DNA from: Candidatus Iainarchaeum sp.
Lineage (GTDB): Archaea; B1Sed10-29; WALL01
Assembly: GCA_021162685.1 (NCBI GenBank)
Contig: JAGGYF010000010.1
Location: forward strand, 1-15,106
DNA length: 15,106 nt
Reading direction: 5' to 3'
The position numbers and the translations under genes are program-made. Positions 8,796 through 11,246 of this stretch are shown piece after piece; within the stretch, counting starts at the first letter, position 1; the number at the start of each line of letters is the position of its first letter. The notes under the pieces were generated by a model. The model was given only the letters and a program-made list of their open reading frames with translations, was not told the origin of the DNA and searched no databases.

Positions 8796-9098
8796 ATGGC
8801 AGACCCTATAAAAATCTATGAAATACAGCCAACATCCTATCAGAAGATTGTCCAAGTAACAAGGCAGGACCACTTTGCAAGGAATGGTTATACGCTCAGA
8901 GATGCAAAAGCATTAGGCATAGATAGAGATGTTTACTATCTGTACATAAAAGCACCAGAGGAATTCTTCAAGGAGCATGAGAAAGAGATTCTCATAGAAG
9001 GTGTAAAACCATTGGAAAGTGTTGAATACGAGAACGTGAAGAGAGTCATTGAAGCAGAGGAAGAAAACGTAGCAAGTGGCATTGCACTATTTGGATAA
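8796..9098 (+). CDS. Hypothetical protein, 100 aa (start revised to ATG 8796)
   Basis: SD AGGTG at 8785-8789; C-terminal EEENVASGIALFG; stop codon 11 nt before tRNA-Leu. Confidence 0.75.
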   Translation: MADPIKIYEIQPTSYQKIVQVTRQDHFARNGYTLRDAKALGIDRDVYYLYIKAPEEFFKEHEKEILIEGVKPLESVEYENVKRVIEAEEENVASGIALFG

Positions 9099-9109
9099 GC
9101 TTTGGCAAT

Positions 9110-9222
9110 GCAGGGGTGCCGGAGCGGTCAAACGGGGTGGACTCAAGGGGTAACAAAACGCCCGTCTTCCTGAGACATCCACTGGCTTAGTGCCTACGAG
9201 GGTTCAAATCCCTTCCCCTGCA
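9110..9222 (+). tRNA. tRNA-Leu(CAA), intron at 37/38, long variable arm, no encoded CCA
   Basis: Acceptor GCAGGGG/CCCCTGC plus A73, anticodon stem GTGGA/TCCAC, CAA at 9144-9146, variable arm GGC-TTAGT-GCC, T-arm GAGGG-TTCAAAT-CCCTT. Confidence 0.95.
9148..9176 (+). other. 29-nt tRNA intron with canonical BHB
   Basis: Central helix CTCA (9142-9145)/TGAG (9171-9174), 3-nt bulges AG|G and AC|A, outer pairs GG/CC. Confidence 0.9.
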
Positions 9223-9225
9223 CTC

Positions 9226-9286
9226 AGGGGGCCTTGTGCCCCCTCTCTTGGATTTAGGTTTTGATGAAACTTTTGTAAAAAGTTTC
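9226..9286 (+). repeat. Two hairpins forming a minimal non-coding module
   Basis: AGGGGGC-CTTGT-GCCCCCT (9226-9244) and GAAACTTTT-GTA-AAAAGTTTC (9266-9286). Confidence 0.85.
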
Positions 9287-9308
9287 TTCGAATCCCTTCC
9301 CCTGCACT
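9287..9308 (+). repeat. tRNA-Leu 3'-end copy 1
   Basis: TTCGAATCCCTTCCCCTGCACT, 21/22 identical to 9203-9224. Confidence 0.92.
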
Positions 9309-9496
9309 GACCAAATTACACATGGTCGTTCGTTGTGGGATACAAGATCCCACTTACAGCAGGAGGGGGTGTGGAATCCGAGGGTTCGCAAAGCGAAGCA
9401 AGGGAGTATATTCTCGTAGTATGCTCTGCGCTTCGCATTGCGCAGGGGGAACCTGGGTTCACCATAAAGGACGCTCTTCGAATCCCTTCCCCTGCA
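9309..9496 (+). ncRNA. Putative structured non-coding module
   Basis: Consecutive GC-rich hairpins at 9309-9327, 9335-9353, 9385-9397, 9426-9445 and 9449-9460; no credible ORF. Confidence 0.4.
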
Positions 9497-9500
9497 CTCA
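9477..9500 (+). repeat. tRNA-Leu 3'-end copy 2
   Basis: TTCGAATCCCTTCCCCTGCACTCA, 23/24 identical to 9203-9226. Confidence 0.92.
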
Positions 9501-9595
9501 CTTGTTAAATAATCATAACGAACATATTAAGCATGTAAAAATAGGTAGTAAGTTTTTTATATAATTGGTTATATAATGACTATAGGTGATGTATA

Positions 9596-9823
9596 GTGGG
9601 TGCAACTACAACTATCCAACTCCATAAGTCAGTAGTAAATGCTCTAAAGGAGATTAAAGCATATCCACGACAAACTTACAATGAATTAATCTTGCAGTTG
9701 ATAGAGGTATTCAAGAGGGTTAAGTCCAGAAACCAATATGATGAGTTTCTTCACAAAATACAGCAATACAAAATGAGAGAACTGTGGGATAACAAAGAAG
9801 ATGAGGCTTGGGAAGATGCTTAG
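9596..9823 (+). CDS. Putative antitoxin of the MazF/PemK pair
   Basis: GTG start with SD AGGTGAT (9584-9590). RHH-like TTIQL...TYNELI and acidic tail LWDNKEDEAW; overlaps the toxin start. Confidence 0.8.
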   Translation: MGATTTIQLHKSVVNALKEIKAYPRQTYNELILQLIEVFKRVKSRNQYDEFLHKIQQYKMRELWDNKEDEAWEDA

Positions 9824-10130
9824 TTCAGGAGATGTAGTATTAGCAAGGGTCCAATTTACTGACACTCTAGAAATAAAAAAACGACCTGCTTTAGTGTTGT
9901 TTGAAGAATTTGATAATGTAGTGGTTGCAGGTATAACAAGCAACCTTAAGATGAAAGGAATTCCCCTTTCAAAAAAAGAAGGGGCAATAAAAGATAGCGT
10001 AATAAAATTAAATTACATCTTTACAATATCCAAAGCAATGGTTTATAAGATACTGTTCCATCTCAGTAAAGAGAAAAAAGCAATTGTTTTTAACGAATTA
10101 ACAAAACGCCTAGGTGCACTAAAAGTTTAA
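9816..10130 (+). CDS. MazF/PemK-family toxin (104 aa; start revised to ATG 9816)
   Basis: GDVVLARVQFTDTLEIKKRPALVL...VVVAGITSN. Confidence 0.9.
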   Translation: MLSSGDVVLARVQFTDTLEIKKRPALVLFEEFDNVVVAGITSNLKMKGIPLSKKEGAIKDSVIKLNYIFTISKAMVYKILFHLSKEKKAIVFNELTKRLGALKV

Positions 10131-10152
10131 TTCGTTAGCGGGTTCTGGCCCA

Positions 10153-10195
10153 GGTTCAAATCCCTTCTGAGGCTTAGGGAGGCCCTGTGCCCTAA
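10153..10195 (+). repeat. Hybrid Leu/Thr tRNA 3'-end copy plus degenerate GC hairpin
   Basis: GGTTCAAATCCCTTC (= Leu 9201-9215) + T + GAGGCTT (= Thr 224-230), then AGGGAGGC-CCTGT-GCCCT. Confidence 0.8.
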
Positions 10196-10249
10196 AGAAG
10201 CCTCTAAATCCTTGACATCCTATGTGGCTAAGGATCCATTTATGAATGT

Positions 10250-10269
10250 TGTAAACAATAGTGTTTACA
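10250..10269. promoter_or_regulatory. Palindromic operator upstream of the RHH pseudogene
   Basis: TGTAAACA-ATAG-TGTTTACA, 8 nt before ATG 10278. Confidence 0.7.
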
Positions 10270-10277
10270 GTGATGTT

Positions 10278-10495
10278 ATGGTCCAAGTCCAACTAAGAGT
10301 TCCAAAAGAGTTAGTTAAAGAATTAGATGAATGGGTAAAAGAGGGCAGGTTTGGGAGCAGAAGCGATGCTATAAAAACAATCATTGCATTATACGAAGAA
10401 AGAGAGAAAACAAGGGAGTTCTATAAGATGCCAATAGAAAGAAGCAAAGAGGCGAAAAAGAAGCGGAGTTGCTTATACCTCTTGAGGAAATATAA
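10278..10495 (+). pseudogene. RHH (CopG-type) antitoxin with a 1-nt deletion near 10464
   Basis: MVQVQLRVPKELVKELDEWVKEGRFGSRSDAIK. The shifted frame gives the typical tail ELLIPLEEI* ending TAA 10493-10495, abutting ATG. Confidence 0.75.
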
Positions 10496-10624
10496 ATGTA
10501 TAAAATCTTTTTTCATCAGAAAGCAAAAAGCGCCTTTGATAGATTAGAATCTCAAATCCAGGAGGAATTATTGTTTATAGGTCACAGAAAAAATGTTTAT
10601 GATAACTTTTCAAAGTTATTCTAA
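10496..10624 (+). pseudogene. RelE-family toxin remnant with in-frame internal deletion (42 aa)
   Basis: MYKIFFHQKAKSAFDRLESQIQE is joined directly to LLFIGHRKNVY; the central catalytic region is absent. Confidence 0.75.
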
Positions 10625-10631
10625 TCTTTTT

Positions 10632-10982
10632 TTACATCTGGTTTATTATCTGTTTTATAACCTTAGTCTTTCTGTCAATTTCTTCAATCAAACGTTTTCT
10701 CAATGCGTCTTTTTCTAGTCGCTTGAACTCATAGTAGTACCCTCTACCTTTTGTTTTTCTCTCTCTGATAACAACACCAATGGCCATAAGTTTCGTTAAA
10801 CTCCTCTGCACTGTACTTTGGTTTTTACCAATTTTTTCCACAAGTTGGTTTGTTGTTTTCGGTTTTTTCAAGAGTTTTAATATCTCCGTATCTGTATCAT
10901 TAAGGCCGAGCAAACATTTTAGTATATTATCTGTTGTTGGTTTCTCTGTAAACAAGAACGCACAGAACTCATTTGCTTGCAT
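10632..10982 (-). CDS. Archaeal wHTH transcriptional regulator (COG3355/TrmB-like; start revised to ATG 10982)
   Basis: ILKCLLGLNDTDTEILKLL...TTNQLVEKIGKNQSTVQRSLTKLMAIGVVIR...GRGYYY. Confidence 0.82.
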   Translation of the reverse strand: MQANEFCAFLFTEKPTTDNILKCLLGLNDTDTEILKLLKKPKTTNQLVEKIGKNQSTVQRSLTKLMAIGVVIRERKTKGRGYYYEFKRLEKDALRKRLIEEIDRKTKVIKQIINQM

Positions 10983-11246
10983 AGTCCCTATTATACATAA
11001 CCACATATATAAACATGTATTGTTATGCCATTCCAATGCATAATCTATCCTTCAAGCAGTATCTTCATTGCCAGCATAAACAACAGTCTACTACACATAT
11101 CAACTGTGATAGAAAGTTATAAAAAATCTCATGTGAGATTATCAACAGTGTAGTTATAATACCAAAAGGAACACCAATAAGAAAACTAGCAGTTAGCCGA
11201 CAAAATCCACAAAAGTTTAAATAACTGTTTGTGTTCAACTAATCGC

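Follow-up and report, generated by a model that had tools for sequence, protein, structure and literature searches.

Short units bounded by tRNA tail copies are stacked behind tRNA-Leu(CAA) in a Candidatus Iainarchaeum genome and may have accreted by integration

The window analysed here is the whole of contig C17 (15,106 bp; JAGGYF010000010.1) of a Candidatus Iainarchaeum genome, G000 (GCA_021162685.1), which is assembled to 1.11 Mb in 45 contigs with a marker-gene completeness of 98.4%. Between positions 9203 and 10624 of this window, starting within the gene for tRNA-Leu(CAA), hairpin units and toxin-antitoxin (TA) genes are separated by partial copies of a tRNA 3' end. These repeats have a single polarity and recur across the genome, the cassettes between them have moved among the tRNA loci of relatives, and one relative carries a unit with an integrase gene in an array of this kind. 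We read 9203-10624 as a tandem accretion array of integrase-less units resembling cis-mobilizable elements (CIMEs), made by tRNA-tail-specific integrases acting in trans, and we give this reading a probability of about one half. That an integrase made this particular array is something we infer. The comparison covered 31 genomes of the class, designated by G-numbers, with G002 belonging to the same family as G000.

Tail copies delimit an array of small units behind tRNA-Leu(CAA)

The two tRNA genes of the window, for tRNA-Thr(CGU) and tRNA-Leu(CAA), both contain canonical introns; default ARAGORN misses both, ARAGORN run with introns calls both, and the Rfam tRNA model confirms both. The tRNA-Leu(CAA) gene occupies 9110-9223 on the plus strand, has an intron of 29 nt and matches Rfam RF00005 with 43.8 bits. 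A preliminary description, made from the letters of the window, had reported that the stretch of this gene from the T-loop to the 3' end (9203-9223, plus strand; our reference core copy, B0) recurs at 9287 and 9477. These coordinates, and the spacings of 84 and 190 bp, were correct. A repeat finder places the tRNA-Leu tail at 9201-9227, 9285-9311 and 9475-9501, and the exact 17-mer AATCCCTTCCCCTGCAC, the last 17 bases of tRNA-Leu(CAA), occurs three times in the window (at 9207, 9291 and 9481) against an expectation of 0.01, a count that was reached in none of 200 shuffles. Core copy B1 (TTCGAATCCCTTCCCCTGCAC; 9287-9307, plus strand) and core copy B2 (9477-9497, plus strand) are identical and differ from tRNA-Leu(CAA) at a single T-loop base only, with G for A. 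B2 is followed by the flank TCACTTGTTAAATAA, which also stands after the tRNA-Leu 3' end in G013. The intact tRNA gene lies at one end of the array and the partial copies on its 3' side only; the tail copies lack the 5' strand of the T-stem, and a T-arm cannot form.

The copies enclose two non-coding units and a TA unit, as had been described. Unit 1 (9224-9286, plus strand; 84-bp period) consists of GC-rich hairpin 1 (9226-9232 paired with 9238-9244), a linker ending in TTTTGATG, and AT-rich hairpin 2 (9266-9274 paired with 9278-9286, a perfect 9 bp), and folds better than its shuffles with z = -5.07. Unit 2 (9308-9476, plus strand; 190-bp period) belongs to a GC-rich hairpin family with left end GACCAAATTACAYATGGTCGTTCG and right end CATAAAGGACGCTC, and has a fold z of -4.10. 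The open reading frames (ORFs) 9322-9564 and 9316-9501 in the region of unit 2 have no Pfam match and are probably spurious. In Rfam, at gathering and E-value thresholds, units 1 and 2 match no family, and only the tRNAs were found.

Unit 3 holds an antitoxin-MazF cassette (9556-10152, plus strand) with a palindromic promoter/operator at approximately 9556-9590. Its antitoxin gene (9596-9823, plus strand) has a GTG start and weak DUF7557/VapB-like matches, and the MazF/PemK toxin gene (9801-10130, plus strand) matches Pfam PF02452 with 37.6 bits, as compared to a cut-off of 23.1. With the small antitoxin gene first and the two genes overlapping at 9801-9823, the pair is, judging from its sequence, a type II TA system of the MazEF/PemIK kind. 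Pfam finds no recombinase gene in units 1-3, which are att-flanked as CIMEs are.

A fourth copy, which had been described as a variant of the same tail at 10155-10175, is real but is of another type. It corresponds to a variant core, B3 (10153-10175, plus strand, with its element extending to 10205), in which a tRNA-Thr(GGU)-type tail precedes a partly decayed Thr-type hairpin 1. Because its best match is tRNA-Thr(GGU) of contig C12 (20 of 22 bases), it is not a Leu copy; in the repeat search it falls into family D5, with 90% identity to a tRNA-Thr tail. The same arrangement of tail and hairpin is found behind tRNA-Thr(GGU) on C12.

Beyond B3 lies a decayed RHH-RelE cassette (10240-10624, plus strand), with an operator of the form GTAAAC..GTTTAC and an RHH gene that starts at 10278; the Pfam RHH_1 match falls on ORF 10212-10547. 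Relative to the intact cassettes of G013 and G016, with which it was aligned, the RHH gene has lost 1 nt near its 3' end and is thereby frameshifted. The RelE remnant (10496-10624, 42 aa) has an in-frame internal deletion of 138 nt, or 46 codons. The decay proposed earlier is thus confirmed by comparison with intact homologues, and the pair is a pseudogene pair, not an intact RelBE/ParDE system. The 12-base sequence CTTGTTAAATAA follows both the Leu tail in G013 and copy B2 in G000. This shared flank suggests that the older state was probably tRNA-Leu followed by RHH-RelE, and that the MazF segment with its Thr-type tail probably entered between them later, downstream of that flank.

Tail copies and toxin genes recur behind other tRNA genes of the genome

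Genome-wide tests covered the 44 tRNA genes of G000. For 14-mers from tRNA 3' ends (at most one mismatch, within 6 kb), seven copies were found downstream, at five tRNAs, with none upstream and none on the opposite strand. For 12-mer tail copies (within 4 kb), the numbers were 13 downstream at eight tRNAs, again with none upstream or on the opposite strand. Most tail copies begin in the T-loop. The architecture at 9203-10624 recurs on other contigs, and it does so in other genomes as well.

Toxin domains in G000 gave 15 matches (PIN, 1; ParE, 6; HEPN, 6; PemK, 1; AbiEii, 1), three of them below Pfam cut-offs. Nine lie within the 10.3% of the genome that is at most 4 kb downstream of a tRNA (binomial p = 3.7e-6), and a tenth lies behind a Leu tail on C34. 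Four are away from tRNAs (two HEPN-MNT pairs on C25, a HEPN gene on C36 and a PIN gene on C18), and one, on C15, is near a contig end. Several of these genes are bracketed by tail copies: a gene of unknown function and a ParE/RelE gene behind tRNA-Thr(CGU) on C12; a ParE-like gene, an AbiEii gene and a HEPN-MNT pair behind tRNA-Thr(UGU); and a ParE-like pair behind tRNA-Ser(GGA). An MNT-HEPN pair stands behind the Leu tail at the start of C34. Within the window, a scan of 25 ORFs found only four TA pairs, all of them in or beside the Leu array and a first array of the same design at tRNA-Thr(CGU), which agrees with the earlier claim that TA loci are confined to the two arrays.

The two tRNA genes of the window do share the 17-mer CGAGGGTTCAAATCCCT, at 204-220 and 9197-9213, and the preliminary description had proposed that one mechanism targets several tRNAs through this T-arm sequence. 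The class of tRNAs with this 17-mer is enriched both for tail copies (three of five tRNAs, against 5 of 39 others; Fisher p = 0.035) and for toxin genes (three of five, against 3 of 39; p = 0.013), but this enrichment is confounded with tRNA identity, because the class consists of Thr and Leu tRNAs only. Furthermore, five of the eight tRNAs with 12-mer copies have other T-arms (Leu UAG, Leu GAG, His, Thr CGU on C12, and Pro CGG). Therefore, the shared 17-mer is not needed, and it is the T-loop that forms the usual left border. What stands of the proposal is the single design, with modules shared by several tRNAs throughout the genome and in relatives; the dependence on the 17-mer does not. More than one kind of element is probably involved, namely integrase-type cassettes and hairpin mini-elements.

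Cassettes change loci among relatives, and one relative carries an integrase in such an array

Occupancy of the tRNA-Leu(CAA) site differs among G000, G002, G004 and G005. No tail copies are present in G005, and G004 has only a short hairpin region free of tail copies. In G002, a GC-rich unit stands behind the tRNA gene, next comes an MNT-HEPN pair between two tail copies, and then the same GC-rich unit again; the tail copies match the tails of G000 and G005, not that of G002 itself. A metagenome search with the upstream neighbour protein, made to find empty sites in close relatives, gave no confirmed relative.

The cassettes of the window are found elsewhere in the class. MazF homologues with up to 77% identity occur in seven of the 31 genomes, across families. 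The MazF cassette lies approximately 160 nt behind tRNA-Leu(UAA) in G006 and approximately 90 nt behind tRNA-Ser(GCU) in G013; in G004 and G007 it is away from any tRNA, and two more loci are cut by contig ends. Its DNA homology (G006, G013, G004) runs from the palindromic operator to the stop codon, and a further ~30 nt past the stop codon are common to G000 and G006. RHH-RelE is intact in G016, G013, G018 and G006 and stands beside a tRNA gene or tail in all four loci inspected: separated from tRNA-Leu by a non-coding unit and then a tail copy in G016, directly behind a tRNA-Leu tail in G013, approximately 200 nt behind tRNA-Ile(GAU) in G018, and approximately 110 nt ahead of a tRNA-like 5' end in G006 (seen by eye; ARAGORN makes no call there).

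At tRNA-Thr(CGU) of G002, six further copies of the 13-nt tail make up a seven-core array. Its first two units hold three ORFs of unknown function and an isochorismatase gene, respectively. The third, between copies 2 and 3, is a 5.3-kb element with genes for a 389-aa tyrosine integrase (PF00589, 5e-24), a 224-aa ORF product and a subtilase; copy 2 measures 25 nt from T-loop to 3' end and ends 75 nt before the integrase gene. It is followed by a TFIIB-like fragment and, last, by a pair of GC-rich hairpin units (166-182 nt). Next to the cores, G002 and the Thr arrays of G000 have conserved non-tRNA sequence in common, and such conservation extends between arrays and genera.

Relatives of this integrase were found in G003 (84% identity), G004 (44%, partial), G025 (39%), G030 (39%) and G020 (34%), so that the family is present in six of the 31 genomes, G002 included. 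The G004 gene begins 41 nt after tRNA-Ser(GCU), and the G003 gene has no tRNA piece ahead of it. T-loop-like fragments of uncertain identity lie at most 350 nt from the genes of G025 and G030. Integrase loci of G013, G017, G020, G023 and G024 have no nearby tRNA, or have CCA-encoding tRNAs on short contigs. PF00589 as a whole was detected in 10 of the 31 genomes and in two of the 11 high-quality ones, a distribution so sparse that a XerA-type dimer resolvase seems to be missing from most of the group. G000 has a single GIY-YIG domain, which is distant from tRNAs.

Hairpin modules accompany many tRNA tails and introns

The module of unit 1 (GC-rich hairpin, TTTGATG, AT-rich hairpin) is present at the Leu(CAA), Leu(UAG), Thr(CGU) and Thr(GGU) loci of G000. 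It stands behind tRNA-Leu(UAG) on C20 and, with a 60-nt insert in its second loop, behind tRNA-Thr(GGU) on C12; in reversed order (hairpin 2, core, hairpin 1), it terminates the tRNA-Thr array of the window. Among relatives, it was found at tRNA-Ser(GCU) in G003, at tRNA-Leu(UAA) and another tRNA in G019, and at tRNA-Leu(CAA) in G020, in each case followed by the T-loop-to-3'-end sequence of the local tRNA itself. A strict module pattern matched three of the 31 genomes, as compared to no matches for a control pattern. In an alignment of hairpin 2 (13 instances from eight genomes, with a gap in one row only), 97.5% of cells are paired, and two of the nine pairs have compensatory changes on both sides. 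A search of the species collection with a module-specific pattern gave four matches, one of them genuine, on a contig titled Candidatus Micrarchaeota. We also considered unit 1 as a C/D-box small RNA or a hammerhead; both readings were rejected by eye, since the D box and the hammerhead core vary between copies.

The GC-rich family of unit 2 has 16 left ends in G000, and its right-end motif gives 36 matches, approximately 13 of them genuine by eye; most copies are beside tRNA genes or at contig ends. In a search of viral contigs for free, attP-like forms, 34 pattern matches were all due to chance and lacked the module, and the left end of the GC-rich element had no match. Behind tRNA-Leu(GAG) and tRNA-Leu(UAA) of G000 (C15:41013-41360 and C12:4918-5260), GC-rich hairpin elements stand as a tandem pair; the loop of one such element contains another, and this nesting suggests that earlier copies have been repeated targets of insertion. 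In G019 (L009, approximately 2330-2530), a tRNA-Thr-like gene may, by eye, carry several insertions, one of them inside the T-loop.

The 27-nt motif of hairpin 2 (TTTGATG plus the AT-rich hairpin), searched as an exact pattern, is present on at least 120 metagenome contigs. Among the 124 instances in the matches listed, 12 are in introns of ARAGORN-called tRNAs (11 antisense, one sense), five are behind a tRNA (four of these with a tail copy of at least 10 nt), six are at contig starts, four have T-loop-like tails and 97 are elsewhere; by eye, several of the last group run antisense to the 5' parts of tRNAs missed by ARAGORN. Often the motif, in one orientation or the other, makes up the bulk of a canonical tRNA intron; sometimes a second hairpin and a T-run stand in tandem with it. 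Among the 117 listed instances with sufficient flank, 17 have a direct repeat of at least 10 nt on both sides, as compared to 2.2% of mismatched control pairs, and T-runs or tandem copies account for several of these 17. In G012, a 29-nt hairpin lies between 53-nt duplicates that span T-loop, tRNA end and hairpin 1.

Explanations for the array

In the accretion reading, the agent would be a tyrosine integrase specific for tRNA tails and supplied in trans, of the sort that relatives encode inside a similar array. Each insertion would leave the tRNA intact and deposit a T-loop-to-3'-end core copy downstream. The present units would be integrase-less products of this process, namely two hairpin modules and the antitoxin-MazF pair, with the segment that bears the Thr-type core inserted before an older RHH-RelE pair that has since decayed. 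TA pairs would persist because their loss is harmful (addiction), and other cargo would have been deleted. We distinguish two layers: the gene cassettes and the array overall are best explained by integrase-type accretion, and the two hairpin units may have been inserted by a separate mechanism.

A number of observations weigh against accretion by an integrase. At E ≤ 1, G000 contains no tyrosine recombinase (PF00589, PF16795) or serine recombinase (PF00239), no Cas1 (PF01867), the integrase family of casposon- and CRISPR-type integration, and no Y1 transposase (PF01797), the enzyme of REP/REPIN and IS200/IS605 systems. A tblastn search of G000 with the G002 integrase left no trace, and no integrase was found in any Leu array. 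The MazF cassette does not directly adjoin a Leu core but follows the conserved flank CTTGTTAAATAA, and the core to its right is of the Thr type. In addition, 14-mers from tRNA 5' ends recur upstream at seven tRNAs of G000 and never downstream. Identical hairpin-2 modules adjoin the tails of six or more different tRNAs, the tail being in every case that of the local tRNA, repeat lengths range from approximately 10 to 53 nt, and some repeat-flanked metagenome instances duplicate non-tRNA sequence. A module found at so many tRNA tails would need many attP variants, which fits target duplication better; taken together, the many local tails, the 5'-end duplications and the differing repeat lengths are more readily accounted for by insertion with target duplication than by attP x attB recombination.

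The units could accordingly be target-duplicating mini-elements, for which a transposition-like or break-repair process cuts in the T-loop (in the D-loop for the 5' cases) and at a variable second point, so that the stretch between the cuts is duplicated and attP is unnecessary. This would cover the non-coding units and perhaps the cassettes. We regard it as possible, if on balance doubtful. The 28-nt hairpin-2 motif is followed by the local tail at Leu CAA, UAG and UAA, Ser GCU, Thr, an Ile-type variant and Val, and the 53-nt duplicates in G012, the 120 or more metagenome contigs, the 12 of 124 listed instances in tRNA introns of either orientation and the excess of repeat-flanked instances, some of them at non-tRNA sequence, all point the same way. 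On the other side, G000 has no transposase, Cas1 or HUH enzyme, the variable lengths of the duplicates are unlike those of known transposases, and 100 of the 117 listed instances are free of a flanking repeat of 10 nt or more, with T-runs and tandem copies among the positives. Target duplication also leaves the integrase-bearing unit of G002 unexplained. Homologous recombination, by which circles or foreign DNA with a tRNA fragment would enter Campbell-style through the recombination system of the host, and arrays would be exchanged between relatives through homology in the tRNA and its flank, agrees with the lack of a recombinase in G000, with the varying repeat lengths and with the G002 copies that match G000-type and G005-type tails in place of their own. 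It appears unlikely, given that cores of 10-24 nt are very short, that copies start consistently in the T-loop and that the conserved arms beside the cores suggest sites recognised by a protein.

A functional RNA module, in which hairpins and tail copy would form a selected pre-tRNA trailer (a terminator, a processing signal or a small RNA), is suggested by the folding of both units relative to shuffles, the compensatory changes in hairpin 2, the T-run after hairpin 1 and the conservation of the 27-nt motif across many metagenomes. We consider this very unlikely: no Rfam family was matched, the C/D-box and hammerhead readings failed, the motif lies in tRNA introns both ways and in many non-tRNA contexts, the tail copies form no T-arm, and the module is absent at tRNA-Leu(CAA) of G005 and G004. 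An assembly artefact, through misjoining at the multi-copy 190-bp element or collapse of repeats, deserves the least credence. The window is one entire 15-kb contig out of the 45 that make up this metagenome-assembled genome, and copies of the hairpin family lie at several contig ends. We aligned short contigs of four public runs (X1-X4), which may include the source sample and so are not independent, to 8900-10900. Difference-free contigs bridge 9099-9288 and 9259-9364, which comprise the tRNA, unit 1, B1 and the start of unit 2. Over 9302-9502, the summed contig depth is 14-57x, as compared to ~4x in the flanks, as expected for a multi-copy element; among the contigs shown, none covers 9503-9569 or most of 10500-10775. 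B2, to the right of the repeated element, carries the T-stem strand CCCTT, which is unique to tRNA-Leu(CAA) in G000, and this specificity argues against a misjoin, as does the length of the repeats (~21 nt), which is below that of usual assembly words. The architecture is present, moreover, on other contigs and in other genomes.

Beyond the accretion reading itself, the tRNA genes of ultra-small archaea might serve as docking sites of an integron-like system that has no resident integrase, in which small cassettes of TA pairs or other small genes, with conserved and structured ends, are shuffled among the tails of many tRNAs, together with a separate, very widespread 27-nt hairpin element that enters tRNA introns as well as tRNA flanks, where it duplicates the local tail. 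We think this extension rather improbable. If true, orphan tRNA fragments would arise directly from insertions of this kind, and decay of the proximal copy would give rise to non-canonical (T-loop or D-loop) tRNA introns.

Comparison with known systems

Archaeal elements with SSV- and pNOB8-type integrases are integrated in tRNA genes; the loci described here differ from such elements in that they are arrays of mini-units with repeats of 10-25 nt, mostly without an enzyme gene. Chromosomal integrons hold arrays of small, promoter-poor or self-contained cassettes with structured recombination sites at their ends and many TA pairs at one docking site. In contrast, an IntI, attI or Pc platform is absent from G000, where a tRNA gene heads the array and its tail is the docking site, and the G002 integrase lies inside a unit. 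REP/REPIN sequences, IS200/IS605-derived hairpins and miniature inverted-repeat transposable elements (MITEs) are dispersed, short hairpins in which a conserved motif precedes the stem on its 5' side and the stem shows compensatory changes, and the hairpin-2 module resembles them in its TTTGATG 5' of the stem and in its compensatory stem changes. To our knowledge, these families make no long target duplications. The hairpin-2 module differs from them further in that G000 has no Y1/HUH enzyme and that many copies are in tRNA introns and flanks.

The closest described architecture is the ssrA island region of Dehalococcoides (PMC3146451). As described there, 20-bp direct repeats of the 3' end of the RNA gene separate islands in tandem downstream, each repeat is immediately preceded by a conserved motif that is not part of the gene, the repeats consistently differ from the gene at one base, and 15 islands without an integration module were read as cis-mobilizable elements joined by accretion. 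The tandem 3'-end repeats, the single base that distinguishes gene from repeat and the conserved sequence beside the cores are features shared with our arrays (PMC3146451). The islands of that account, however, measure several kb or more, target tmRNA and have a serine recombinase in the same genomes (PMC3146451), whereas the units here, of 84 bp to ~1 kb, are found at many tRNAs of an archaeon, are rich in TA genes and have no recombinase in the genome. The CIMEs described in streptococci are att-flanked, have lost genes for integration and transfer, and stand in tandem with newcomers at a tRNA 3' end (PMC5704250). Judged by their sequence, units 1-3 of G000 are similarly att-flanked and lack integration and transfer genes. 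Unlike them, the CIMEs in that account are decayed bacterial integrative and conjugative or mobilizable elements of many kb, for which mobilisation in cis by an integrative and conjugative element was demonstrated (PMC5704250). In archaea, it is well established that partial tRNA copies border integrated elements; those in tRNA genes of Thermococcaceae are described as single, ~2-23 kb long, as a rule 9-23 kb, and bounded by repeats of ~44 bp (PMC9897764), and a recombinase-bearing insertion at the Caldiarchaeum tRNA-Thr locus is described as leaving a tRNA fragment (PMC3293823). At the level of titles and abstracts, we found no description of tRNA-linked TA or integrase arrays in DPANN or Micrarchaeota.

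The arrays indicate that a streamlined, ultra-small archaeal genome keeps TA and defence-type genes in stacks of mini-units behind tRNAs. They would extend the model of tRNA-targeted accretion to mini-cassettes in archaea, 84 bp to 1 kb in size, for which a candidate integrase family is now identified. A widespread hairpin element common to tRNA flanks and introns makes the origin of tRNA fragments and odd introns testable. In practical terms, loci of this kind fragment assemblies and cause errors in the annotation of tRNAs and ORFs.

The first array and other features of the window

The first array occupies 124-3031 on the plus strand. It begins with the tRNA-Thr(CGU) gene (124-229, plus strand), called by ARAGORN with introns, and has tail copies at 1226-1240, 1911-1925 and 2990-3010 (plus strand), an RHH-ParE/RelE pair at 1368-1853, a HEPN-MNT pair at 1953-2938 (minus strand) and a terminal hairpin at 3011-3031. 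The first unit behind tRNA-Thr contains an orphan ORF, P0001 (284-1111, minus strand; 275 aa). We considered P0001 as a hidden recombinase and rejected this candidate: it had no match in Pfam, NCBIfam, PADLOC or PDB sequences, and none in a word-index search. A HMMER search of 1.8 billion representatives returned one 91-aa protein that matches residues 1-44 with 95% identity, and matches in the atlas were all under the useful range.

Bases 1-41 of the window repeat 98-138 exactly, that is, 23 nt upstream of tRNA-Thr(CGU) plus its first 18 nt. The two duplicates bracket a 56-nt GC-hairpin insert and are of the 5'-end duplication type, as at seven tRNAs of G000; the first of them touches the contig start, where an assembly effect is possible.

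Among the housekeeping genes, a small, isolated PLD-family nuclease (6389-6895, minus strand) matches DISARM DrmC models at 2.5e-22. The ORF for glutamate dehydrogenase (4805-5779, minus strand; 324 aa) begins at position 55 of its N-terminal Pfam domain, and the gene may be truncated, split or mis-started. Finally, a 45-nt AT-rich repeat (family D2; 6355-6399 and 10999-11043, 87% identity) lies directly upstream of two minus-strand genes, for a glutaredoxin-like protein (6035-6337) and a TrmB-like helix-turn-helix protein (10632-11036), and could be a promoter or operator shared by the two.

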